A DNA stretch of 58,989 nucleotides, counting the filler, from Dugesia japonica (lineage: Eukaryota): NCBI GenBank assembly GCA_001938525.1. It is 5 parts of 5 records of this genome, joined end to end, with 100 filler letters (N's around TTAATTAATTAA, not from the genome) between each part and the next. Parts side by side here need not be neighbours in the genome. Positions count along the whole stretch, not along the records: positions 22,166 to 32,361 come from MQRL01599835.1; 4 more parts are not named here. The stretch is one strand, 5' to 3'. Below are positions 10,401 to 58,119 of the stretch, piece by piece. The position numbers and the translations under genes are program-made. Every line of letters starts with the position of its first letter. Position 1 is the stretch's first letter. Under the pieces are notes generated by a model. The model was not told where the DNA came from. It ran no database searches and was given only the letters and a program-made list of their open reading frames with translations.

Positions 10401-10738
10401 ATATAAAAATACAATCATTTACAACTTGCTCAGTACTTTTCTTAAAAAAATTAATATAAGTAGAGGGATAGTGGCGGTCTGGCGCACACATATTCAGTAC
10501 CCCCCCCNNNNNNNNNNNNNNNAAACGAAACATAATCCTAATGTATTTAGTCGACGATTTGAAATTGCACACCTATTAAGTAATTTTATGTAACTGCGCC
10601 AGTATTTTTTATGTGTATTAAGTTGGGAAAATTATTTGCAAACAAATTATGTCATAAGATAAATTTACGTAATAGGATTAAGTGGCTACATATTNNNNNN
10701 NNNNNNNNNNNNNNNNNNNNNNNNNNNNNNNNNNNNNN

Positions 10739-10750
10739 TTAATTAATTAA
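10739..10750. other. Artificial contig linker TTAATTAATTAA within N run
   Basis: Six-frame stop linker flanked by N runs. Confidence 0.97.
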
Positions 10751-12069
10751 NNNNNNNNNNNNNNNNNNNNNNNNNNNNNNNNNNNNNNNNNNNNAAGAAA
10801 GGAAAAGAATAAAAAAAGAAAATGGTGAAAAAAATAAAGTAAAATAAAGAAAAATTAAAAAATGAAGAGGGTTAAAGAAGGAAGAGGGTTAAAGAAAGAT
10901 TACGATAAAAAGGGTAAATGGTCATTATAAATAAACAAATTGGAATAAGTTTTATTTTATCTATGAAAATGGTAAATGTTGTTGAAGTTCGAGATAGAGA
11001 TTTACTAGAAGACGTTGGATCAAGAATGATTTGGAATGCAGATACTTGCATCTTGTATAGAAACCATTGCGCTAGTGAGTCACAATGGTGACTTNNNNNN
11101 NNNNNNNNNNNNNNNNNNNNNNNNNNNNNNNNNNNNNNNNNNNNNNNNNNNNNNNNNNNNNNNNNNNNNNNNNNNNNNNNNNNNNNNNNNNNNNNNNNNN
11201 NNNNNNNNNNNNNNNNNNNNNNNNNNNNNNNNNNNNNNNNNNNNNNNNNNNNNNNNNNNNNNNNNNNNNNNNNNNNNNNNNNNNNNNNNNNNNNNNNNNN
11301 NNNNNNNNNNNNNNNNNNNNNNNNNNNNNNNNNNNNNNNNNNNNNNNNNNNNNNNNNNNNNNNNNNNNNNNNNNNNNNNNTATTTCAAAATTTCTAACTC
11401 TTAAATAATTGGCTTTGTTAAATTTGAAATTTTAAAAATAAAAATTATGATTTTGTATCAAATAATTATAATAACAATTTTTGATTTTTAGTTAATAATT
11501 TTTTAGTTTCCTATGAATAATATATCTGCATATAAGCGTAATTCAGAAACTAAGCAACACAATAACACTCAATTTTAAATAGGCTATTTTTTTGCTGGGT
11601 TATCGTTATTATTATCCTTATGATCTGATTTTATAATTATCGTTTTTATTATTGTGGTACTATTACTAGTCCTATCATTATTTATTGTCCTTAGTATTAT
11701 CACAATTATTAAGCACAATCTTATTATTATTGAATCAATATCGATGTTACCACTGGTACATTCGTGGCTGTTAGCACTATAAGTTAATGTCATTACTATT
11801 AATATTACCGGTATTCCGCTCTTGGTGTATACGGTTAGTGCTCTTACTGCAGAGTAGTGTTACTCTTATAATTATATTCAGTATTATGGTCATGGTTATT
11901 ATGTGGCGTAACGGGTATTAACCGTAAGGTTCTCATTATTATTAGGAACGGTAAATTTATTATCATGTTATTAAATTCATTATTAGGATTGGCATCAGTA
12001 TTATTGAGATTATTATTCTTACCATCTTTAATAATGCTATTAATTTCTACTACCAATATCATTATTAAT

Positions 12070-22058: not shown

Positions 22059-22109
22059 ATGTCGTNNNNNNNNNNNNNNNNNNNNNNNNNNNNNNNNNNN
22101 NNNNNNNNN

Positions 22110-22121
22110 TTAATTAATTAA
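22110..22121. other. Artificial contig linker
   Basis: TTAATTAATTAA in N run. Confidence 0.97.
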
Positions 22122-22165
22122 NNNNNNNNNNNNNNNNNNNNNNNNNNNNNNNNNNNNNNNNNNNN

Positions 22166-22655
22166 GAATTCTACCTTGTGGTATATTGCATTAATTTTTC
22201 TCACTTCTATCTCAGATTTGAGATCGGTTTTAGGTGTAAAGAATTCTTGACATACTTGTTTGATCAGATAATCTAAGCGATAGGCATTGCGACCTTTGGT
22301 TAGGCCCAATTTCTCAAAACATCTACCGTGTGATAGGTCTCTAATTCCCAATAAACGCTGCGTCGGGATACCAATAACTTTAATGATTTCTATAGCATTG
22401 CAACCAACGATTATTTTTCCATCAAAAAGTCGGTGCAATTTGGCTCTACAGGCATATTCATCTCAACGTCCAACTATTTCTGTTTCGGTTAATCTATGGG
22501 AATGAGTTTGATAGTGCTTTATGAGTTCTCTGGGAGTAATAATAGAGTTAATTATTAATTTCCCTTTGAAATTTTCTATTGATATTGATACTAATGCTGA
22601 AGTGTTTTCACCTTTGGTTGTTGCGTATTGTGCTGGGACGAAAAGTAACTTTTCT
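22166..22655 (-). pseudogene. DEDDh exonuclease-like domain (ISG20/REX4 family), catalytic residues replaced
   Basis: SALVSISIENFKGKLIINSIITP..IKHYQT..LFDGKIIVGC..IRDLS..RLDYL..SEIEVRKINAIY matches the REX4/ISG20 pattern; two ORFs in frame across one stop. Confidence 0.72.
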
Positions 22656-23355
22656 CGCTCGTCTTCTATTCGAGGTATCCGTTGGGCGCGCAATGAAAAG
22701 TGTTCCTTTAAATCATTCTGGTTAATATTGTAGATCCAATCCTCTACAGCTTTAGTTTCGAATAATGAGTTCTCTATCTGGGTGATAAATCTCGATGACT
22801 ACTAATACATTTGTTTTATTAGTGTGAATTTGCATATTCTTTTCTCGACTGCTCCCATTGTGAATTCTGTCATGAGAGTTCAACAGGCTCTACTGTTCCT
22901 GCAATTAGTAGCATTAACTTGTCTGATGGTACATGTACTACTAAGCAATCGGTGTTGATTTTCTTCAAATTAACTGGTATTAAGTCTAATAATTTGTTCT
23001 GAGTTTTTGCTTTAAGCCATATGGCTACCAATTCACGTTCGGGAGATTCTGGGACTTTGATCATGTTTGGGATCAATGTGCACTTTTGGTAATACCAAAA
23101 ACATTTATTTGAAGTATTATATTCTTTTGAGAAATACATAAGGAAACTTGTATAGATATATTTTGGTTTAATAGACTGCGTGATTTTTGTCTTGGACTCT
23201 TCTGTTGAGTAGTAGTACTGGAATCATCTAAAATTACTATTATTAACAAATTATCCTTATAACATTATAGGTGATAGTACAAGCTCTACTGCTTGATAAA
23301 TTTTAGTGCATTCAAGCTATTCTAGCTTATTTTTTGAATGCAATTTATGATGATT

Positions 23356-24330
23356 TTATATATCAGTGGTTTCGTATATCTGGTCATTATAATATACGTG
23401 AAACCTCTTAAAATGAATTTTAGCACAGATTGAAATAAATGCTACTAATGTCATCAACAGTACTAGGCCCATAAGTATTAATTGTAATTGCTCTATTGTT
23501 ATTATTCCCAACTTGTTTGGCGAACAAATACACGTATTATTTCGAATTTCCTGTAGGCGCAATGTGGTTTTTTCCATTTTGTTAATTTCGTTTATTCTCG
23601 TGGTGGGTGTAGTTGTATTTATTTGATTTATTTTTAGTCTAGATTTCAATCCTTTCCAAAAATTGGGTTTCATTTTATAAATATCATTTCCAAGCTTTTC
23701 TGTGTTACAGTTAGCTATTTGTAAATTTTGCTTTTCTTTTTTGAAAGTACGCATTTCTTGTCGTAATAAGATCCACTTTTGACCTTCCTGTCTGAAATAT
23801 TGAAATTTCAATATTAGTTTACTTTCACATTCATAAGAAATGAGTAAGTAAGTTGATTCTTTGGTGATGTTTTTATATCGAGATGTCGTATTCTTGATTA
23901 AAATACATCTGATCGCTTCATACCTTGGTACATGTGCAACTAACATAAGATGGGTATAGTTACTGACAGCTTTGACGTATGCTGGTTTAAATGTAATAGT
24001 TTCTTGTATTTCTACCGTATATACTCTGAATTGAGTAATACTCTTAGCTGTTCAGTTTGCTTCCATCTCTGTAATCATCAACTTAATTACAAAATGTTTA
24101 TTTCTGTGTATCTCGACTTTGGGTGAGTTAGTATTTAACTGAATATTGAGATTCAACCTAGAATCCATACTTTCGATCGTCACTGTGTGATTTCTATCTC
24201 CAACATGTTCTATCACTATAGTCCGATCTTGTGCATAAAACCGAACAAATTCTGTTTCTAATAACTTTGGAGTAAAGTATTCGGCTGGAGTTGTTTGTAC
24301 AATCTGTATTAAACTCATTATGACCAAAAA
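23356..24330 (-). pseudogene. Post-integrase type I membrane protein-like region
   Basis: Signal-like IVNFLVIMSLIQIVQT, beta-rich ectodomain, TM LQLILMGLVLLMTLVAFISICA. Confidence 0.5.
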
Positions 24331-24459
24331 ATTAACTATTTTTGGTGGTTGTTTAGATCTCAGAGTATATTTATGATCCTCTGTCGTACTTTGTTGCTTT
24401 GACCTTTTCTGAATCTTTTTATCTTTTATCTGTTTTACTTCAACCGCTTCTGTACTGGT

Positions 24460-25560
24460 TGGTATAAATTTCTTGCAACGATTAGCATGAACGAATATTG
24501 GTTCATGGTCTGGTTTATTATGTAGTTGTAATAACACGTTTGTATCGGTAGTTTTAATAACTTCTTAAGGTCCTTTAAATGGCCTCATTAACTTTGGTGA
24601 AAATCCCTTTTTATTGGAGTGTCCTTCTAACATCATTAAATCTCCTGTTATGAATGGATTTTCTTTCGTTGTTTTATCATATCTTTCTTTCATTGATTCT
24701 TGATTGAATTTGATATTCAACCCAGCTNNNNNNNNNNNNNNNNNNNNNNNNNNNCTCAATTCTACTGCATAATCTTTTTCATCCATATATTGTGAAATTT
24801 GTGGATAGAAAATTAAATCAACTGGCATATTTGTATGCCGTCCGTACATCATATAAAATGGTGATTGATTTATGCTTGGTTGTATTGCATTTCTGTACGC
24901 AAATAAGCACGATGGAATGTGTACATCCCAATCGGTTTGGTTAGTGTTAACATATGACGCGAGCATATTAACAAGCGTGTCATTAAATCGTTCTACTAGA
25001 CCATTGGTTTGTGGATGGTAGGGTGATGTATTTAACTTCAAAATTCCCAAAATACTCGTTTATTGCTTTAATGAGATTGCTCATAAAATTAGTTCCTCTA
25101 TCAGATAACAATTTTTTAAGAACTCCAAACTTAAATATTATTTGTTCGACAAAAACCTTTGCTATTGTAGGGGCTTCATGATTTGGTAAAGGAAAAGCTT
25201 CAGACCATTTAGTGAGATAATCGCAAAATACTAAGATGACTCTATTTCCGCTGCTTGTTAGTGGAAATCTTCCGAAACCTCGACGGCTAGTACATCCCAA
25301 GGATGTAATGATACTGGCATTGGTTTAATGGTTCTTTAGCTTTCTTTCCTGTGTTTCTTCTGGTAGCGCAAATTTGACATGATTGACACCATGCTTTAAC
25401 ATCTAGTTCCATAGATGGCCAAAAATATTTGAATTTTAATCTAGATAGTGTTTTTCTGGTGTACAAATGTCCTCCTAATGCTCCATCGTGATATTAGAGT
25501 AACAATGGATCTCTTAAATTGTTAGGAACAACAACAGTTGATTGTTGAGCATCCATAAAT
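24460..25560 (-). pseudogene. Gypsy integrase
   Basis: HH-CC zinc region, DYLTKWSEAFP, LLSDRGTNF, TSPYHPQTNGLVERFN, FKGP, VHANRCK. Confidence 0.95.
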
Positions 25561-25686
25561 TTAATAATACCTTCATCGATTATGAAACAATTTTGATCTT
25601 TGTGCCATCCTTTAGGCAATTCTGTTATTTCTCCTTTGATTAACTTGTTAACTAATTTTAATTCATCATCGTCTTGTTGTGCTTGT

Positions 25687-27000
25687 TTAATATCGATTTT
25701 GCTTCAGAATAGTAAATATAGTATCTGTCGTTTGATATTGCTCACTTGGCAAACGAGATATAGCGTCTGCGTTAGCATTGGCTTGTCCCTTTCTGTATCG
25801 TACTTCGATATCGTACTTTTGTAACTCTAATGCATATCTGATAAATTTAGATAGATTATTTTTATGTTTCATCAGCCATTGTAATGGGCAGTGATTGATT
25901 AGTACAATCACTTTTCAACCTCATATGTATTGTCTAAACTTTTGAACTGCGAAAATTATTGCATATGTTTCTAATTCAATGACTGCATAGTTTTTCTGAT
26001 GTTTTTTTAATAGCTGGCTCGCATATGCAACAGCACACTCTTTTCCATCATCATCTATTTGTCCTAGGACCGCTCCGACTGCTAAATTACTAGCGTCAGT
26101 CATTACATAAAATTGTCTTGACATATCTGGATGTCGCAAAATTGGTTAAGTAATCAATTTTTTTTAACGTTTCAAATGCTTGCTGTTGTTCAGCTCTCCA
26201 ACTGAATTTTACATTTTTTCTATCCAATTTAGTCATTGGATGCGCGATTTTTGCAAAAGTTTCAATGAATTTTCGATAATAATTAGCTAAAGCCACAAAT
26301 TATTTGGTTTCCATTTGATTTTTAGGAATTGGATAATCTTTTACTTTTTTAATGTTATTTGGGTCTGGTTTAACCCCATCTCTAGATATAACATATCCCA
26401 AGTATTCAATTTTGTCTTGACACCATGTGCATTTTGTTGGTTTCAATTTGATTCCTGCCTGTCTCATACGTTGGAAAACTACTTCAATGTCTTTCAAATG
26501 TGATTTCAAGTCTTCAGAAAAGATTATAACATCATCGATATACACGATGGCATGATCTACATCCATTAAAGCGAAATTCATAGCTCTTTGAAAAGTAGCT
26601 GGTGCTCTGGTTAAACCAAAGTGCATTAAATTGTACTCAAATAATCCTTTATCAGTGGCAAATGCTGTTATTGCTTTGGCTTTTTCATCCATGATGAAAT
26701 CCTATATTCGCATCTAGTGCTGAAAACATTTTAGCATTTCGTAGTCGTCGTATTATTTCCTCTATTAATGGTAGAGGGAAAGCATCCTTTATAGATACTT
26801 AATTTACTGCTCTGTAATCAATACACAATCGTATTCCTCCTCCCTTTTTCTTCACCACGATTAATGGCGAACACCAAGGTGATTTGCTTGGTCTGATTAG
26901 TTTGTGTTTACGCAGTAGTTCTACTCTTTCATGAACTAGCTTCTGTAATGGTTACGGTATTGGATACAGTCGTTTTTTGATTGGAGCAGGATTTATTAAT
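25687..27000 (-). pseudogene. Gypsy reverse transcriptase and RNase H
   Basis: [63 protein letters not shown]. Confidence 0.97.
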
Positions 27001-27444
27001 GTAATTTCGTGCTTTAGTATCTTACATACTCCTAAATCGAATTCGTGTTTTGAGAAAATATCTCCGTATTTTCTGAGTAAACTCATAAAATCGACTTTTT
27101 CTTCCATAGACAGTTCTAAATTCATTACTGATGGTGGATCATATATTTCTATTTCATCCACTTTAGGTTGTTTTGTTGATATTTCATCTCTTTGCATTAC
27201 TGTAATTTTTCCAATTTTTGTATTTGGAAACAACAATTTATTTTTGTTATCTAAATTACATATTCTGATTGGTATTTCCCCATTCTTCGGTTTAACTAAT
27301 GCAATTGCTGATCGGGATATTATATTTCCGTATGAATTCTGGATTTGGTTCAAACAATACGTCTTCCGTAATTTCTTTATTCACATTAACATAACAGATC
27401 ACTTCTGTTCTTCTAGGGATTTCAATTCTATTTGAGATAAATGC

Positions 27445-27840
27445 CTAATCTCTGTCGTAGACTATCTTTTTATCTGGTGTAATCTTTACTAGACTACCGC
27501 TAGTGCAATCAAAACTTACGTCTTGTAATTGCCTTAATACATCCATTCCCAATATGGCTTCACTAGGACAATTTATCATTACTCTCGCTGCTACTTCAAA
27601 TGTTTGATCACATACTTTGAATTTAAATTTTAAGTGTCCTTTCAACTTTACTTCTACTCCGTTTATTCCAGTAGGTATTATTGCTGCTTTTGTAATTTCA
27701 TCAATTTCTGTATAGTTTAATATTTTGTAGTCGATCAGTGTGACATCTGATCCGGTATCGATTATTGAGTATACCCAATGTCTGTTAACTTTTATTTTTA
27801 TAGTTGGTTTTTGATATTTAGGAGATTCGTTGGATATCAT
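27445..27840 (-). CDS. Retropepsin aspartic protease
   Basis: IIDTGSDVTLI and AILGMDVL. Confidence 0.93.
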   Translation of the reverse strand: MISNESPKYQKPTIKIKVNRHWVYSIIDTGSDVTLIDYKILNYTEIDEITKAAIIPTGINGVEVKLKGHLKFKFKVCDQTFEVAARVMINCPSEAILGMDVLRQLQDVSFDCTSGSLVKITPDKKIVYDRD

Positions 27841-27852
27841 AAATACTGACTC

Positions 27853-30213
27853 TTAGATTATCAATCCCTTTCTTTTCATTTCATCTTGTAGTTGTTGCTG
27901 TTGTTTCAACTGATCTAACGGTTTTATAGGATATTGAGATTGGATTGGTGCAGTAGATGCTGTATACTGCCATGATTTATTTCTATCATTGATCTGTACT
28001 TCGTCATCTGAATATGACGTAACCAAATTTTGATGATGCCTTTTTACTGTTAGAGAAAATATTTTAGTTCTTTTTTCATCCTCTAAATCTGAATAATCTG
28101 AAAAAAATTTTTAATGATGATTTATTTTGATTGGATTTCATTCTGTATTGTCAAGAGGCAACATGATATATGTTTTGTCTCACCCCTCCATCCTTTGGAT
28201 AGTTATCGTCCTGATGATCATCATCTTCAAAATAAATTTCTCTGTGTCTAGGCATTGATTGCTTTTGATTTAATTCGTTGATCAATTTATGATGCCTTCT
28301 GAATATAAGATGTGTTGCTATAAATGGACAACATCCAAATATTAATTTCCAAGTGCATCCAATTGTTTTGTAGATGTCTGCAAAAGATAATACCTGTTCT
28401 GCTGCGACTTTTATTAATACTAATATTATTAATATGCCTGAGATTCCTGCCATAGTTGTTCCAAAGGCAGTGAAACATCCCCATACGCTTCCCCATATTT
28501 GACGTGCAACACTTTTTGCCGCATGTTTGTAGTGTTCTATTCCAAATAATTAGTTATAATCTAGCATTTGCATTCCATTTTGGTAGATGGTTCTTATAAT
28601 TTCCGAAATTCTTCTTTCTCTTACTTTAGGAAAGAATATCGTTTTTAATGCTTCATCTATATCTTGTCGTGTATAGACTCTGTTTGTATTTATGACGTTG
28701 ATTGGTTCGGCTTCAAAGTTTTGATCTAACTTTATAGCCTATATTGTATGCACCTCAGCTGGTGGTGGCTTTCTATCTGGTAATGATATCCAGATGTTAT
28801 TGATTTTATATAATGGTAATAATACACCATTATACATAGATATTTGTGGTTTAGCTTGTTCATCTATCAATAAATGAGTGATAGGAGTCATAAATCGTCA
28901 TTTTTTTGATAAATTACTAGAAATTCGATCGTACACGGAGCATAGTTTGTTACTGCAACTACTACCGCTTCACAACGATACACATATAACGCTTCTGCCA
29001 TAATTCTACCGAACATTCCATCTTCGGCTATTATTTGAGTTATTAAATCTGGGTTAATTATTGATAGTGCTAATCTATTTCTCATAATTTCTCGATTTAA
29101 TCGACAGTCGTTTAGTATCACTTCTTGATAAATTTCTTTTAATTCTGCTTGAAGATCATGATACAAGTAATCAACTTTGTTATTAATATAATTTGTTAGT
29201 TTTATATCCATTGAATGTATCTTGTTAGCAGTTGATATTTACTTTTTGCTTAGATATATATCTTTATAATTGGTTTCGTAGACAATTTCTGCACATTTAG
29301 TGGTTTGAGCTTTTCGCACCAGTCTAATGGCATCTTTTGAATCTGCTGAAATTAACATTATCAGTGTTCTCTTTTCATCCAATCCTTCTTCTCTGCTTTC
29401 ATTTTTGGCTGTTTTTGCATTTATTTTATGGTTAACAACCTTTTCTGCTTTAAATTTTGTGCCATTTATTTTTTCAAAAGTCACTTGCTTAAGCAGTGCT
29501 AGTTCGCAAAAGTTTAATTGTGGTTTGTAAATCATTCTTGCTGCTTCCGTGGAGCATGGTGCATATTTCGAGTTGGATTCGGGATAATTAACCATTTTTC
29601 CCGTAATAGCTTCGAATACTCCTTCATATTCTAATAGTTCGACGACATATTCCTCAATATCTACAACCCCCGTTTTTACTCAAGTTTGTCCTCTCCATTT
29701 ACCGGGTCCATCGTAGGTTTTGTCGTCTTTAATGTAACCTCGTATCAATGTGTCTACTAGTTTTTTATTTGGCAATGCTTTAATTGATCTTTCTTTGTCA
29801 ATACGTAACTTTTGTGTTCCTAACGCATTTTCACAGTCTTCCGACAACACACGTATCGGTCTGGGTGTTATTTTCATTGATAGAAACACTGTGTATGAAT
29901 GTCTACCGCACCAATATTCGAAAGTAGATTGTTGTAATCTGCATTCTCTGACTTCCGTGCGATAGTACGTAGTTTCTTGGTACACGTAGTATGCTTCCGG
30001 ATTACTTCGCTGTAATCTTGTTGGATATGCAACTTTACATTCGATAGTATCAACTAAAGAATATATTTTGACTAATTCTGGCTTCTTGCAATCATACGCT
30101 ATCAATCCTGATGTTTGCGTGATCATTTGCGTTAAAAGAATTGTTAATAACATCAAAATAGTATTTTGTAAATTTAGTGGTCTCTTTACTGGTATTTGAT
30201 TGTTACCTCTCAC
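27853..30213 (-). pseudogene. Chuvirus-like (class III) envelope glycoprotein
   Basis: Signal peptide then GLIAYDC..YSLVDTIEC; C..S..YWCG.HS; YETNY; MDIKLTNYINNKVDYLY; LYVYRCEAV; C-terminal FGTTMAGISGILIILVLIK TM region. Confidence 0.82.
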
Positions 30214-30992
30214 TGTTCGTAATTATAGGAATTCGGACCATTGCCCATGTGTGACAATCCATGGTTCTACAAATTGTACGATTATGCCACTCAGCATTTC
30301 TATCTCTTGATCTAGGTCAAAATTTTTCTCGTTAGCATGTTCTATTCGTTTGATTAAATAAGCAAAAATATTACATATCTTTGCTTCATCTAGGCCAGTT
30401 TCATACACTTACCGTATGACCGCACTTATATTTTCACCGTCATATTGTACTGTCGGCAGTTGATCGATGCAACTCTTAATCAATTTTTAAATTGATATTC
30501 ACAATCCACTTTATCTAGTGGTAACTCTGGCATGATTTTTTTTTACTAAATTATTAGTTAACTTTTCAGTACTCGACATTCGATGTATAGGTACCTCTGG
30601 TGGTTGATTCCACGTTGGAACTGCTGCTGTAATTTGTCTTGCTCTAAGTGCACTTCGTGTTTCATCTGATAACAGATTTCTAAGTGGCGGTATTTACCCT
30701 GAATTAGGTGGTCTACCTCTTCGTCTTGTATTTACGTGAGAGTTAGCATGTCTAATTTGTGTTAGTACCTCTTGTACTGTACTTGTTTGATTAATAATTG
30801 GTGGTCTTATTTCTTCATCTGTAGGCACATTTTCTACATCAGAAATGATTACATCGTCTACATCTAAATCTACTTGATGCAATTGATTAATCGGCTCTAT
30901 CATAACCGGTATTACTGCTTCGGGAGGTGGGGGTGTATTGAGCTTATCCATCTCCATTCGATTATGTTCAGTTTCCTCTTCAGACTCTTCTG

Positions 30993-31230
30993 TTACCTCA
31001 ATTCAGGTACTACTTGTAGTACAACATTTATTTTTCTGTCTGCAAGATATCCAACATCGACCAGATATTCATCATCGTCAACTAAACTTCCATATATAAT
31101 TATCAGGTAAATATTTTGCTCATTAATTTCATGTCGAATTTCTCTCCTTAACCTTTTAACTTTAGTGAAACAATGATAATATTTTGTTATATTTGGATAG
31201 CCTTGTATAGCAATATCCAGTGTCAACATT
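30993..31230 (-). pseudogene. Ubiquitin-like domain 2
   Basis: TKVKRLRREI..IYLIIIYGSLVDDDEYLVDVGYLADRKINVVL resembles the ubiquitin C-terminal half. Confidence 0.5.
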
Positions 31231-31570
31231 CCTTGTCTGGATGGATTATGTCTGATAGCTTCGCCGTTTTTCCGCACGAGCATTTTTATTTCCGTTTGAT
31301 AAGGAGTGTTTAGACTCATTATTGGTAATATATTATCAATCAATTGTGCTAATGTATTGACAGGTATAGCTAGTATGATACAACAGCTTTTTAACTGTTG
31401 TATTATCTATAGTTAACTTTTGTAATTCATCTTTTATTTGATGTGGTAATGCTTCCATTTTTTCCATTTCTCTTGGTTCATATTCTATTACCAAACAACA
31501 TTGTTTTGATCAATACACATTGTAGAATTTAATGAATACCTAAGTCTTATCTCATTCGGCCAATCTGGGA

Positions 31571-31750
31571 TTAGTCCGTTTCCAGTAATGTTTTATTTGG
31601 ATCCATTAATTGTCCAAAATATCTGAGTTGAATTGGCTGTACTTTACGACACTGAAGTTTACAAATCAAGTTTTGTACTGTATCTAATGGTTTCATTTCT
31701 ATCTCAAAGCGATTACCGTGTGGTGGTTTAATCGCAATTAAGATTCTCTC
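31571..31750 (-). pseudogene. Ubiquitin-like domain 1
   Basis: ILIAIKPPHGNRFEIEMKPLDTVQNLICKLQ..QLRYFGQLMDPNKTL vs ubiquitin [46 protein letters not shown]. Confidence 0.72.
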
Positions 31751-32294
31751 AGCTCTAACTCTTGGTTTGAGCTGGCATCCGATTTTCTGTAAAATCGCTA
31801 ATGCTGGATCATCAAACATGTTATCTTCATTTACTCGAGTTGTAACAAGCTCTAATGCTTCCGGTATATCGCTATCCGGTATNNNNNNNNNNNNNNNNNN
31901 NNNNNNNNNNNNNNNNNGCATTTCATTTACTTTTTGTCTGTATTTGTCAATTTTTAAACATTTCCCCATGTCTGTTTTTTCTTCAAATGACGTATCTGAT
32001 AGTAAGAAATATACACTGTTTTCATCATCACTAGTCGTTGTATACGACTCATTGTCTGTATCGCTTTCAATTGCCTCATTTTTCTTTGCATAGAAAATGG
32101 TTTCATTGTTATCTGTATTTGTCGGTATGCTTCCTTGAGCATAGTAAATATCGTCATTGTCAGATTGTTCCTGCAATTTGCTCAGTCGCGTTCTCTCCTT
32201 CTGGAGTTCATATTCTAATTGTTCTAACAGGCTTTTGCAGTTGTCTTCATCTACTAAATGAGTAGTAGGTATTCCTTGTGTAATTTCCCTTGAA

Positions 32295-32361
32295 GCACTA
32301 CAGGATCTAGCCATGTGTCCGTACTTCTTGCAATTGTGACATTTTATTTGTCCCTCTGTAT
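32295..32361 (-). CDS. Gag nucleocapsid zinc knuckle
   Basis: CHNCKKYGHMARSC, in frame with ORF 31571-32314. Confidence 0.9.
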
Positions 32362-32405
32362 NNNNNNNNNNNNNNNNNNNNNNNNNNNNNNNNNNNNNNN
32401 NNNNN

Positions 32406-32417
32406 TTAATTAATTAA
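32406..32417. other. Artificial contig linker
   Basis: TTAATTAATTAA in N run. Confidence 0.97.
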
Positions 32418-33119
32418 NNNNNNNNNNNNNNNNNNNNNNNNNNNNNNNNNNNNNNNNNNNNACTTTATATTTTATTTACTTGTAAAATTGTTATAATTTT
32501 AATAAAGTTTACTATAAAATAAACGTGTTATTTTTTGATTTATCTTTATTTATTATTTATAATAAATAAAAGAATAGTTCACCTACACGCCTAGTAATTT
32601 TAAATTGGAGTCAGTTTATTTATTGTTAAGTACCTGAGCCCACTAGGATCTAACAAGAATATAAAAATGAAAATATCCAAACAAATTAATTTTATAAAAT
32701 TATATTAATTAATATAAAAACCGAAATTCAAAAGATGTTTTCTTTTTTAAATTTTTTGCAATACATCCAATGATAATAATGATAATAATATTTGAAACGG
32801 TTATTATTCTTCTAATAGGAGATTGATAATGATTTTTAGCTTTAATAATAATGTTTAATTTGGAGGTTTATAAGCTTCTTTATTCGATTTTATTTTCCGT
32901 TTGGTGATTGCCAAGAATTTTGTTTTTTTTCTTTATTTGAAAAGTAATTTTTTAATTTTAATTTTTTTATTTCAAATTCTCTGTCGATAATTTAATCAAA
33001 ATTTTTATTCTCAAATATTTCTATTATAATTATAGTAATACACGTGTGTATGCATTTATACAAACATATATAAACATTTTTAAAAAACATAAAAATAAAA
33101 ACAATAACATTACACAATG

Positions 33120-35049: not shown

Positions 35050-38000
35050 TGATTTCATCTTTAATTCTTTGTTATCAGGAGAGTGTTTTATATCATTATC
35101 ATTAAATAACCATAAGACAGAAAAAATTGTTAGATCTAAAAACTATATAGATNNNNNNNNNNNNNNNNNNNNNNNNNNNNNNNNNNNNNNNNNNNNNNNN
35201 NNNNNNACCATCATTTTGTAACATTAGTGCCAATATTTTAGTTTTTAATTTTCCAGATTTCGGTTCTTTATGTATAGTCTTGCATTGGACACAGGTTTTA
35301 CAATCAGTTCTTGAGAGAGCATCTGCATTCAGATGTTCTTCACCTTTTATGTATTCCATTTTAATATCCGAATTGCTAAGATGGTTGATTAATATCTGAA
35401 ATTGTGGTGTTTTTGGTCCTTTAGTCTTCCGCATAAATGTTATTGCTTTAAAATCAGTTCTTAATCGAAATCTCTGTCCATACAAATAATGTTTAAAATG
35501 TTCTGTGAAATAAACAATCGACAAAAGTTCTATTCTGGAAATGCAATAGCCCAGCTCGTGTTTACTCATGGCTTTAGATTCGTAAGCAATAACTTTTTCT
35601 TCACCATAGTTATCAATTTGACTTAAAACTCACCTATTCTATCAAAGCTGACATCAGTGTCCAATATAAATTCTATAGAAAAATTCAGAAACGCTAAAAC
35701 TGGAGCTTTTATTAGCTCACCTTTCAAATTTTTAAAAGAAATTTCGCACTCATCTGTCCAGTATATTTTTTCTGGTTACTACCACATAGATTTTCTAAAC
35801 ATTTTGAATACTTTGTGTAATCCTTTATAAATTTTTTATAAAAATTTGCGAGGTCTATAAAAGTTCTAAACTTTTTAACACATTTTGGGGTTTCAAAATT
35901 AAAAATGGCTTCAATTTTTCACTATCAGTATGGATCTCTCTTGAATTAATAATGTGACCCAGAAATTTTATCTCGTTTTTCATGAAATGACATTTAGATG
36001 GACTTATTTTTAAATCAGCTTCTTTTATACTATTAATAATATCCACCTTTTAATAATTGTGCACCTTTTGTCGAAAATGCAGTTTTACATTTTGAGTCAT
36101 CTGTTAATTCTACTTGATAGTAAGCATTACCCAAATCTATACTAGTAAAATATTTGGCTCCATATAAAATGGAATAAGAAAAATTGGTCTTTCTGTAACT
36201 TCGTTTAACAATCTATAATCTAAGCAAAGTCGTATGTCATCATGGTCTCGTTTTTTTACGCAAACCAAAGGAGCATTCCAAGGGGAGTCACATTTACATA
36301 TAATTCTATTTATATCCATTTCTTTAATATTTTGCTCAATTTAATCTATTAAATGATAAGGTTGACGCCTAAGAATATTTGCAATTGGTTTACTATTTGT
36401 TATTATTTCATGTTTTACAATAATACTTTTTCCAATATCCCATTTATGTTTAATTATAATGCTTTCATATTTTTCTAAAATCGTGAAAATCATTTTATCT
36501 TTAATATTTTCAATTACTAATGTTTTCGGTTTAAATTTATTTACATTAACAGATTCTTCATTAATGGTGAGTTTTATATTAAATTTATTCAATAGATTTA
36601 TTCCACAAATAACANNNNNNNNNNNNNNNNNNNNNNNNNNNNNNNNNNNNNNNNNNNNNNNNNNNNNNNNNNNNNNNTTAAATATACTTTTCCTACAATT
36701 TTTAAAGAACTATTATTCGCACATTTAACATTTATATCAGAATCAATTACTAAAACATTTGCAATTCTTTTTAATAATTCATATTTAATAAGACTAATTT
36801 TAGCTCAAGTATCAAGTAAACATGATGTAACAATATTATTAATTTTTAAATTTATCATAGGTCGACTATCTGCGGTATTATAGTTTTCATAAATTTCTTT
36901 ATCAAAATTATTAATAATTGATAAATTATTATTATCGTTATAATTTTCATTACTACTATAATTATTTTTATTATCCACAATTATATCAAGCATAATATCA
37001 TCACACAAATTTTTTTCAAGCAATCAATATCAATCATACCATTATTGCTCAAATCAAATCTTAAATTTTTTAATGAATCGCCCCGACAACTTCCTCTCTT
37101 GGAAGGGCTTTGGCTTTTGGCAATTGATCTGTCATCATCTGTCATCAAATCATCTGAATGTTCATCGTATGCTGCAACATTGTTTTGACGATAATCTCTT
37201 TTCATATCCCGAATCTCATAGCATTAATGTTTAAAATATCCAGGTCTGTTACACTGGAAACCTTTTACATTTGGACAATTAACTCTGACATGTCCTTCTT
37301 TTTTGCATGACCAACATCTTTTAGATCTTTGTGGAAAATTATTTTCCNTTCTCTTAAATCCTCTTCCGTNAAAACGATTAATGGGTGTACTTGAATTAAC
37401 ATATCTTCTGGAATTCGAATATCGGTTTCTGTTGTTTTCCACTAAGTTATTCCTTTTAAATGTGACTGGGTAATTTGACTGAAAATCATTAAATTTTGCA
37501 GTTGTTGCATAATTCTTCTTTCTGATTTTAATTGCTGCAACATTGACTTCTAGATTAAGCTCCTTCTTGATGTTGTCCATTTTTGAAAAAATGTCTTTCA
37601 TTTCTTCATTTGTACTGGATACTCGAATTTTTATTTCTTTTTTACATCCATATCTTCAACAGCGTTTTGTAAAAGAAAACTGATGAGATTTTCCTTTGTT
37701 AAGTTATGTCTAATTATATTCTCTGCAAGACTATCAATTTTGTTGAAAAACNNNNNNNNNNNNNNNNNNNCTTTTCGATAATTTAATGCAGATAATAAAT
37801 CTTTACCTGAGGAAAAAAATGCTTTCATAAATGTTCTTTGAACAGGACCTTGAGGCATTGTAAGCTCATAAAATCTTGCTATCTCGATAAAAAATACTTC
37901 CACATCGTCTCCAATATTGAAGGTTTTGGAGTAAGAACAAAGGAATTGAGCATATGTTCTTGGGTGGTCACCATGTTAGAAGTCTGTTTCATAACCATAA

Positions 38001-46590: not shown

Positions 46591-47732
46591 ACTATAGGCC
46601 TTGTGGTTGGTGTCCCTTTGACATGGAGCTGATTGATATTAATTAAAAGATGATGGAAGAGATTTCGATAGATTGGGATCTCGTGGCATCCAAAATCAAT
46701 AATGATCATTATAAAGATTCAGTTTTAACATTTGATACGTTAGCTTCAGTTTTCCACTAAGCAAAAAACGATGTCAACGCAAGAAACGATAATTAAAAAC
46801 TGAANTCAGTTACCAAGGGTTGAAGACATNCTCTAAAAANAGTAGTCTTCAATGAGAATATTCCAAAAGAATCACTTGCAACTATGATGATGAATAAAAA
46901 AGAAAGAGCCATTCTTGAGGATGTTCTCTTAGGAAAATTCGTGGAGACGAAAAATCTCACATTTATCAAAGATTATAAATCCATTGTTTCCATCTAAGTA
47001 ACGCGAGTAAAATCACCGTAAGTCATCTCAGATCAATGAATGAATTTTTGAAGGTTTATACGTTGAAAAAGCTAAATGTTGAATCTATTAAAGAAATCAG
47101 AGAATTCTCCAGATCAAAAAACTTTTCTTCAACTAATGAATAAGTTTACAAATTTCTCTTTCCACCATTCAGATAAAACAATTCCATTGGATCTGGCGAC
47201 ATCTTCAAATTATGTTATTTCATCAGAACCAAATGAAAATGGTTTGACTCCTATAGTAGATAAGGTAGCTTTTGCTTATTGGATGCAGGCTATTCTAGGT
47301 AAGTCTAAATCACTTGCAATGTGTCAAGTTTAATGGAGCGCAATACAATGGTTGTGGTTTTGTTATTTTCTTTCTATCAATTTTCTGTTTATTTTATATT
47401 TAATTATTTATATGAATTTTTATCTCTGTGGAGAATTAGTAGGCCCCAAGAGAGTCACCGGAAAAAAATGTGTTGGGACACTTGGGTGTATGCTGTGCTT
47501 AACAATTTGATTATTAAACGATCAATTTATAATAGTTTTAAAGAGAATGTGATGACTGGGGACAATTTCTGTTTATTATAATAATATAAATAGTTATTAA
47601 AATTATTTAAATTAAAGAAAAAAAAATAATAATTATTTAAATAGCTATAAAATTATTTAAATTTAAATAATAAATTATAAACTCCAAANNNNNNNNNNNN
47701 NNNNNNNNNNNNNNNNNNNNNNNNNNNNNNNN

Positions 47733-47744
47733 TTAATTAATTAA
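47733..47744. other. Artificial contig linker
   Basis: TTAATTAATTAA in N run. Confidence 0.97.
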
Positions 47745-48349
47745 NNNNNNNNNNNNNNNNNNNNNNNNNNNNNNNNNNNNNNNNNNNNTTCGCCACCACA
47801 CTTCTCAGAAAAACCATCCATCCAATCTCATAAGTCCTTTGACAATGTATAAACTAAATTCTTGTCCAACAACAACCAAATCTTAAAAACCCCTGAAAAA
47901 TTATTTCCAAGATTTCCAGCTCTCCCTCGAGTTCAAATTCACTCTTTCACACACTCACATACACACAAACTCAACTTGACCTACTTTATAAAAATCCCCT
48001 TAGCAACCAAAGCACACACACGGGCACGAAAAAGAAAGAAAAGCGAAAAGAAAAATAGCACAAAGTGATGAAGAAATTGTGAGGTTGTTGCTACGAAGTG
48101 AAAGGAAGCTAATGTGACAAATAAAGTGCAAGTGAGAATAAAATGAGAACGATAAACTGTGAGTGGAAGTGTAATACAAAACAATCGTAGAAACTAAAAG
48201 GAGAAAGTATTAAAATGCCACAGGATCAAAAAAACTGATCCGATCAAAAAAATTTTGATCCCAAAAATCTTAGAGAAAAAACTACCCAAAAAATCACAGC
48301 ACAATCGTAATGTGTTTCTGAGCCTCCCCCCCTGGGGTGTCCACTCCAA

Positions 48350-49165: not shown

Positions 49166-49680
49166 TGTTTTCTCCATTCGCCTCAACTCTCCTTTTTTCT
49201 CTCTTTTTGCGTCCTCTCTCATCGGTTCCCACTGTATCACTCCGTCCTGCTCTGTTCGCCTCGAATCTCCTCAGTTCCCTATTTTTCCTCCACTCTCCTC
49301 TGTTCGCCTCTACTCTCCTCTGTTCACTCCATTTGCCTCCACTCTCCTCTGTTCGCCTCTACTCTCCTCTGTTCGCCTCTACTCTCCTCTGTTTGCCTCT
49401 ACTCTCCTCTGTTCCCTCTATTTGCCTCCACTCTCCTCTGTTCTCTATTTTCGCCTCCTGTTTTCTCTGTTCGCCTCTACTCTCCTCTGTTCAGTCTATT
49501 TGCCTCTACTCTCCTCTGTTCCCTATTTTTCCTCCACTCTCGTATGCTCGCCTCTACTCTCCTCTGTTCCCTATTTTTCCTCCACTCTCTTCTGATCTCT
49601 CTTTTCGCCTCCTGTTTTCTCTGTTCGCCTCTACTCTCCTCTGTTCCATCCATTTGCCTCTACTCTCCTCTGTTCCATCT
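49165..49680. repeat. Pyrimidine-rich minisatellite (about 21/31-bp units)
   Basis: Recurring gcctctactctcctctgttc. Confidence 0.92.
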
Positions 49681-49844
49681 TTATTGAAACTGTCTCACTA
49701 CTTTTGAGAACACACCTTGCGTGTTCTTAATTTGTTCATTCCAAAAGCGAAGAAGTCCGGTGAAAAAGTGGCGACAAAATCACAAAAACCGTTTTTCACC
49801 GTTCTTCTTTAATATTTGAATAATTAGAAGTTGTCTAATACCAG

Positions 49845-57422: not shown

Positions 57423-57917
57423 TTATGTAGGAGTCACTGTAAAAATTGCAAGAAATGATGAAAATATCATCAAAATAATTCCAATTGAAATCGATGATCC
57501 ACTGTTACAACCTTGTTTATTGTTGCAGTGGCAATATCTCACTTTTACACGAAGAGTTCCCATTCGATCTGTGCACCAACGACCTTCTTCTGCACCGATA
57601 TAACCAGTAACTGCACAATCTCTGTAATATCTTCGTTCCCAAACTCCATCATAATATAGTTCTTGGATAATTTTTCTGCACATGGAATAATTTTTACCGT
57701 CATTTGGACATCTTTCTAAAATCACTGTCTGATTGTCAAAAAAATCAGAACAATGTGGTTGCGTTAATGAATTACATTGATAACATTCAAGTTCTCTGCC
57801 GAATTCTAAGAAAAATTTCAAGTTATTAAAATTAAAATTTAATTTATTACGCTGAAATGCATTAATTGCAAATATTATAAACCCCGCCAATAAAATTACG
57901 AATAAAAGTTTTTTCAT
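57423..57917 (-). CDS. GPI-anchored Ly6/uPAR three-finger protein (quiver/sleepless/crooked-like); 45-nt intron 57806-57850
   Basis: Signal peptide, LECYQCNS..C..C..CRK..RDC..C..YCHC..GCN, hydrophobic C-terminal tail. Confidence 0.92.
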   Translation of the reverse strand: MKKLLFVILLAGFIIFAINAFQRNKLNFNFNNLKFFLEFGRELECYQCNSLTQPHCSDFFDNQTVILERCPNDGKNYSMCRKIIQELYYDGVWERRYYRDCAVTGYIGAEEGRWCTDRMGTLRVKVRYCHCNNKQGCNSGSSISIGIILMIFSSFLAIFTVTPT

Positions 57918-58119
57918 TGAAATATTAAATTACAATTTCCTATATCTTTAAATATCTAAGCTAACAAATATTCTTTAATTAGTCTATTAAAAGAAATTCA
58001 AAATTAAAAAGTTTCAAAAAAATTGTTTTGATTTAGAAGGAATATTTCCTCTTTATTATCAAAATAATTATTTATTATTTTTAATAAAGAACTTTAAAGA
58101 ATTATTATTGAAATTTAGA

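Follow-up and report, generated by a model that had tools for sequence, protein, structure and literature searches.

A decayed retroelement copy of Dugesia japonica carries, between the zinc knuckle of its Gag and its envelope protein (Env), one ubiquitin-like domain (UBL1) and probably a second one (UBL2). We consider it about 50% probable that these UBLs are built-in, non-conjugated binding modules or decoys for the host ubiquitin/SUMO machinery and not cutting signals. The window, i.e., the whole stretch of 58,989 nucleotides that was analysed, is low in GC and consists of five assembly pieces joined by spacers, so that sequences flanking a spacer are not necessarily adjacent in the genome. 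Both UBLs are encoded on the minus strand, near the upper end of the piece 22166-32361. Gag's capsid part and the 5' LTR are cut off by the spacer at 32362 and are not part of the window. The features of this piece (Table 1) follow each other in the order knuckle, acidic linker, UBL1, spacer, probable UBL2, Pro-rich/acidic linker, putative Bcl-2-like domain, Env, protease (PR), reverse transcriptase (RT), RNase H (RH) and integrase (IN). Judged from its sequence, the stretch is very probably the middle of a Ty3/gypsy retroelement with Env between gag and pol, in which every gene is interrupted by stops and frame changes.

Table 1. Coordinates of the annotated features, counted along the whole window.
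Feature	Position	Strand	Evidence
Assembly spacer, N44 + TTAATTAATTAA + N44	32362..32461	.	
Identical N-TTAATTAATTAA-N spacers, n=4	10695-10794, 22066-22165, 32362-32461, 47689-47788		
CCHC zinc knuckle, nucleocapsid end of Gag	32300..32341	-	Pfam PF00098 (zf-CCHC), E=1.1e-4, above cut-off
Acidic linker in the frame of the knuckle, spanning the 35-N gap	31754..32299	-	28 of 127 residues D/E in 31918-32299
UBL1, integral ubiquitin/SUMO-like domain	31536..31753 (in-frame part 31753-31580)	-	Pfam, PDB, shuffles
Spacer between UBL1 and UBL2, about 98 codons, frame changes near 31497 and 31380	31242..31535	-	no third UBL by profile
UBL2, probable second ubiquitin-like domain, C-terminal end damaged	31002..31241	-	ESM Atlas
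Pro-rich, acidic low-complexity linker	30487..31001	-	17 P and 25 D/E in 171 residues
Bcl-2-like helical domain, weak	30223..30486	-	viral Bcl-2 homologue chains 5ua4/6tzc, E=0.027-0.028, residues 10-88
Signal-peptide-like hydrophobic stretch	30103..30159	-	by eye; in frame with the upstream linker
gB/chuvirus-type Env with stops and frame changes	28154..30102	-	Pfam PF24664 in three pieces, E=1e-16, 2e-18, 4e-11, above cut-off
C-terminal membrane anchor of Env	28456-28400	-	
Aspartic protease	27523..27813	-	Pfam RVP, 1.8e-7
Reverse transcriptase (part) and RNase H	25813..26701	-	RVT_1 1.6e-22; RT_RNaseH 1.5e-33
Integrase, in pieces	24568..25324	-	rve 7.7e-5, rve_3 3.4e-5, both below cut-off
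Second membrane-protein-like region, in the frame of the integrase and 3' of it	23356..24330	-	hydrophobic start 24330, anchor 23481-23425
Weak ISG20-like exonuclease remnant, 3' side of the element	22169..22858	-	only two PDB matches: ISG20 E=0.025, ISG20L2 E=0.072
Zinc knuckle of a second LTR element	37316-37275	-	Pfam, E=0.003
RT RNase H of the second LTR element	35105-35629	-	E=3e-17

An earlier note on this DNA had described an ORF at 31571-32314 that continues from the knuckle through an acidic linker to a ubiquitin-like segment. This course is correct on the minus strand and the linker is indeed acidic, but the start given at 32314 corresponds to a Met within the knuckle, and the frame stays open up to the spacer at 32362. 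A gap of 35 Ns at 31883-31917 lies inside the frame from the knuckle to UBL1. A contig of sequencing run X3 is gap-free over 31781-32123, where it has 343 letters; as it bridges the gap without a change in length, both the length of the gap and the common frame of knuckle and UBL1 hold.

The piece 31759-31574 matched the Pfam models Rad60-SLD (PF11976, E=1.6e-4) and ubiquitin (PF00240, E=7.6e-4), both below the curated cut-offs and with the SUMO-like model outscoring the ubiquitin model. The 60 PDB matches listed are all ubiquitin, its variants or fusions; the best single-domain match has E=3.4e-4, and the much lower E-values in the list arise from adding up the repeats of polyubiquitin. With a profile made from 434 UBL repeats UBL1 scored 26.3 bits, a value that none of 1000 shuffles reached. 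When the same profile was run over 1572 six-frame chunks of the window only UBL1 was found (23.6 bits, against 4.1 for the next chunk and 5.8 for the best reversed one), with the restriction that the proteins behind this profile had been collected by means of UBL1, so that the profile leans towards UBL1 and is partly dependent on it. The resemblance to ubiquitin that had been seen by eye is thus confirmed by the matches in the Pfam ubiquitin clan, where the earlier note had proposed to look, and by the PDB and shuffle results: UBL1 is, on profile evidence, a ubiquitin-like domain. It is about 30% identical to ubiquitin-type repeats, with 24-38% across 99 matches in a representative library. 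Among these 99 proteins no CCHC knuckle or protease motif was found and a chance YxDD occurs in one, while the seven that were inspected are multi-UBL proteins. Among longer proteins none of 165 candidates was a relative of UBL1, in a word-limited search of little evidential weight.

The frame of UBL1 changes near 31575, before the last strand, and by eye a strand-like piece follows in another frame at 31553-31536. In an ungapped alignment with ubiquitin UBL1 has Arg at the position of Ile44 and is without equivalents of Ile44 and Leu8. SUMO likewise has Arg at the position of ubiquitin Ile44.

For the second, weaker UBL, which the earlier note had put at the end of ORF 30993-31343, the place on the minus strand is right and the evidence is divided. 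By eye UBL2 has the pattern strand-strand-helix-strand-G-strand. In the ESM Atlas it reached a similarity of 0.91-0.92 to ubiquitin-clan clusters, and seven of 30 matches had a common Pfam family, ubiquitin-like in all seven. Among the named clusters the first match scored 0.92 with 172 shared features and the best ten were all in the ubiquitin-like clan, values to be read against the 4-10% of shuffled proteins that reach 0.9 and the third that give ten of ten in one clan, in a search that is not calibrated on protein parts. Pfam gave no match for UBL2 and the PDB no relevant one; its score against the profile of 434 repeats was equalled by 296 of 1000 shuffles and its pairwise score with ubiquitin by 124 of 2000, and hhalign assigned a probability of 0.1%. 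The structure prediction that had been suggested was uninformative, since the two single-sequence folds (pLDDT 48 and 50) are too poor to judge; they contained no beta-grasp and no fold match at E<=0.001. Taken together, UBL2 is probably a second ubiquitin-like domain. In its non-significant alignment with ubiquitin the hydrophobic residues at the positions of Ile44 and Val70 are kept, and this difference from the Arg of UBL1 weakly hints that the two domains might have different partners. A third repeat, for which the earlier note had proposed to examine 31340-31560, did not appear: the windows past UBL1 were equalled by 108 to 277 of 300 of their own shuffles. The term tandem, used in the earlier note, applies only loosely given the about 98 codons between UBL1 and UBL2.

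Small parts of the stretch are present in 20 of the 24 listed sequencing runs, which come from 10 studies. Contigs of runs X1, X2 and X3, with one organism label, and X8, with another, together leave none of the 30 bins of 27400-32361 uncovered. Most of the long contig pieces listed are about 82-90% alike to the window copy, and a few low-depth ones about 96%. The UBL region is therefore a trait of the family and not a one-off insertion. At three of the frame changes between UBL1 and UBL2 the high-depth contigs are longer or shorter than the window copy, as would be expected if the frame were open in other copies; none of the contigs listed spans the whole stretch, and no individual natural copy showed the single frame throughout.

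Differences between copies suggest protein-level selection on the UBL region. There, 22 of the 40 differences listed (of 87) are at the third codon position (p=0.004), and in the spacer at 31246-31379 it is 9 of the 12 listed. For the two UBLs alone the 28 listed differences divide into 13 third, 12 first and 3 second positions; the third-position bias has p=0.10, and the scarcity of second positions has p of about 0.006, calculated by hand and chosen after the fact. No third-position bias was found at 14 Env positions (5 third, 6 second, 3 first). Raw RNA run X22 contained four reads, all less than 90% alike, which are too few for a conclusion on expression.

The earlier note was right to place a UBL in a retroelement Gag and missed the context that helps to explain it, namely a Bcl-2-like region, then Env, then Pol. 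In the PDB the best natural matches of the Bcl-2-like region are viral Bcl-2 homologues, outranked by four designed helical repeat proteins; Pfam gave no match. The region contains by eye W-x-x-x-x-G-x-W, which we take to be a BH2-like motif. This lends weak support to a helical domain of Bcl-2-like type. The signal-peptide-like stretch did not pass a hydropathy cut-off of 1.6 (19-residue). In word-limited searches, which carry little weight, there were no relatives of the Env piece among 189 candidates from longer proteins, and none of the region from the Bcl-2-like domain to Env among 4081 proteins of 1401-4459 residues; no Env relatives were found among viral contigs.

The nearest published layout is that of the planarian Burro/GYPSM1 giant gypsy elements, described in PMC6431247. 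These encode one polyprotein with Gag, CCHC knuckles and a Ubi2/SUMO-like PF11976 domain between MATH and BCL-2, and have Env in frame between BCL-2 and protease; they were proposed to meddle with host apoptosis and ubiquitination (PMC6431247). The window element shares with them a Gag with CCHC knuckle, a PF11976 domain, Env before the protease, PR-RT-RH-IN and, tentatively, a Bcl-2-like region ahead of Env, and PF11976 is both the domain of Burro and the best Pfam model of UBL1. From Burro's order Ubi/SUMO, BCL-2, Env, PR the UBL and Env were found and BCL-2 only at E=0.027 and outside Pfam. In contrast to Burro the window element is far more compact, with about 714 codons from the knuckle to the Env signal and about 7.8 kb from the knuckle to the end of the integrase. 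The span from knuckle to Env scanned by Pfam has no MATH, BIR, ankyrin or Smc match, the part upstream of the knuckle being outside the window. One knuckle is visible, there are probably two UBLs against the one motif mentioned for Burro, and the dUTPase-like region is without Pfam match. From these comparisons the window element resembles Burro in layout but has neither the giant size nor, in the pieces scanned, the other cargo that characterise Burro. By eye, the interval between protease and RT at 27100-27447 on the minus strand resembles the dUTPase-like region of Burro; Pfam gave no match for it in two pieces.

A ubiquitin-like domain in the Gag-Env position is already published for Burro (PMC6431247), so the element is not a new kind of system. 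What the window element adds is the combination of UBL and putative Bcl-2-like cargo in a compact relative in which the other cargo of Burro was not detected, which makes the pair a likely conserved core, and possibly the presence of two UBLs. Neither was found in the literature searched; the original Burro description, Repbase or the figures of PMC13524379 may show them.

Elements of the type GAG-ENV-POL with gB-type Env have been reported from nematodes, bryozoans and flatworms, and Schmidtea mediterranea has six (PMC13524379). Pfam recovered in the window the order of these HSV/gB-type errantiviruses, with Gag, Env and then PR-RT-RH-IN. The nearest of them is Smed_errantivirus_4, alike in gene order and Env type and identical to the window Env at 45 of 83 positions, compared with 33 of 83 for Smed_errantivirus_1 (hand counts; the other four were compared by eye only). 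Taken with the low GC, this likeness points to a planarian host. At such an Env distance the window element would be a different family, and the window copy, unlike Smed_errantivirus_4, is decayed. The word 'ubiquitin' is absent from the text of PMC13524379 and its seven text supplements, so the UBLs are not annotated there.

In the reading that we prefer, working copies would make one polyprotein, as published for Burro (PMC6431247), and the UBLs, which precede the Env signal, would face the cytosol. The aspartic protease of the element would release them, or they would remain attached close to the membrane, and they could act as adaptors or decoys for proteins of the ubiquitin or SUMO pathway. 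Together with the Bcl-2-like neighbour they may make up a cassette that shields the proteins of the element and prevents the death of the host cell. Precedents for such domains exist. The SUMO-like domains of Rad60/NIP45 and the coronavirus nsp3 Ubl1 are integral, non-conjugated UBLs without GG, which lie beside acidic low-complexity linkers. UBL1 resembles them in its lack of GG and its place beside acidic linkers, and has Rad60-SLD as its best model, a resemblance only, at a score below the Pfam cut-off.

Ubiquitin C-terminal hydrolases require a C-terminal Gly-Gly. As the earlier note had observed, no terminal GG is visible, and none of the minus-strand frames of 30900-31900 contains two glycine codons in a row. 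The end '..VVPELR-stop' after UBL2 is a lesion of the window copy, since additional letters are present at this point in a sister contig; by eye, they too are free of adjacent glycine codons. This bears on the proposal that the UBLs are processing signals of the type known from cytopathic pestiviruses, where a host deubiquitinase would cut after the UBL and free the downstream protein. The precedent is real (PMC8310069, PMC13517609): pestivirus polyproteins carry a ubiquitin-fold unit, sometimes in two copies, and the inserts derive from cellular ubiquitin and are cleaved off by host ubiquitin C-terminal hydrolases (PMC8310069). Lying between the Gag and the Env signal of a likely polyprotein, the UBLs would be suitably placed for such a role, and the damage to the C-terminal ends of both UBLs in the window copy leaves some room for it. 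However, the pestivirus inserts are recent captures of cellular mRNAs (PMC8310069, PMC13517609), whereas the UBLs of the window are old and divergent. UBL1 is far from the near identity to a cellular modifier expected of a cutting signal, and the element encodes its own protease. The proposal fails at its defining test, the Gly-Gly, and we regard it as highly improbable.

By analogy with the coronavirus nsp3 Ubl1, which binds nucleoprotein (PMC8769549), the UBLs may instead bind the element's own nucleocapsid or RNA complex and so connect it with the Env part anchored in the membrane. UBL1 is suitably placed between knuckle and Env signal and is flanked by acidic linkers, but Gag and Env would already be one chain and the domain of Burro sits among the host-derived regulators MATH, BIR, ankyrin and BCL-2 (PMC6431247), and a role in assembly seems unlikely to us. 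A UBL that mimics ubiquitin might also serve in budding by recruiting those ESCRT proteins that bind ubiquitin, as a substitute for a late domain. This role, which we hold to be quite doubtful, would agree with the envelope gene, with the hydrophobic positions of UBL2 in its non-significant alignment and with the two linkers scanned, in which no PTAP, PPxY or YPxL occurs; the Ile44 and Leu8 equivalents lacking in UBL1 speak against it, as does the fact that most of Gag is outside the window, so that a late domain may lie there. SIM-like motifs were absent from the same two linkers. Finally, the UBLs could be passengers or folding spacers, captured sequence without a specific partner, and UBL2 may not be a UBL at all. 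The non-significant third-position bias of the UBLs alone and the failure of UBL2 in the profile tests point in this direction. Against it stand the occurrence of the region throughout the family, in runs that carry two organism labels, the few second-position differences within the UBLs (a post hoc figure) and the retention of the same domain type in Burro (PMC6431247), and we give this explanation only a small chance.

If the UBLs are decoys for host ubiquitin or SUMO proteins, as we prefer to read them, they would give modest, testable access to the means by which enveloped retrotransposons counter host control. A bolder, tentative extension, which we think rather unlikely as a whole, is that compact enveloped planarian elements carry between nucleocapsid and Env a minimal counter-defence cassette of a SUMO-surfaced UBL, a ubiquitin-surfaced UBL and a Bcl-2-like domain. 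In the stem cells of the host it would jam silencing and cell death that depend on SUMO or ubiquitin, and the decoy would be common to the giant and the compact lineages.

Behind the integrase, the second membrane-protein-like region has a beta-rich-looking middle, and 6 N-glycosylation sequons occur in 23359-24570; no credible Pfam family was found for it. The ISG20-like remnant at the 3' side had no nuclease family in Pfam. In other pieces of the window a second, unrelated-looking decayed LTR element lies at 35102-37975 on the minus strand, and an imperfect pyrimidine-rich tandem repeat with a spacing of 20-49 nt at 49177-49682. On the minus strand at 57423-57929 there is an intact-looking frame of 168 amino acids with a signal-like start, a Cys-rich middle and a hydrophobic end, which by eye we take to be a host gene of the Ly6/three-finger type (quiver/sleepless-like).
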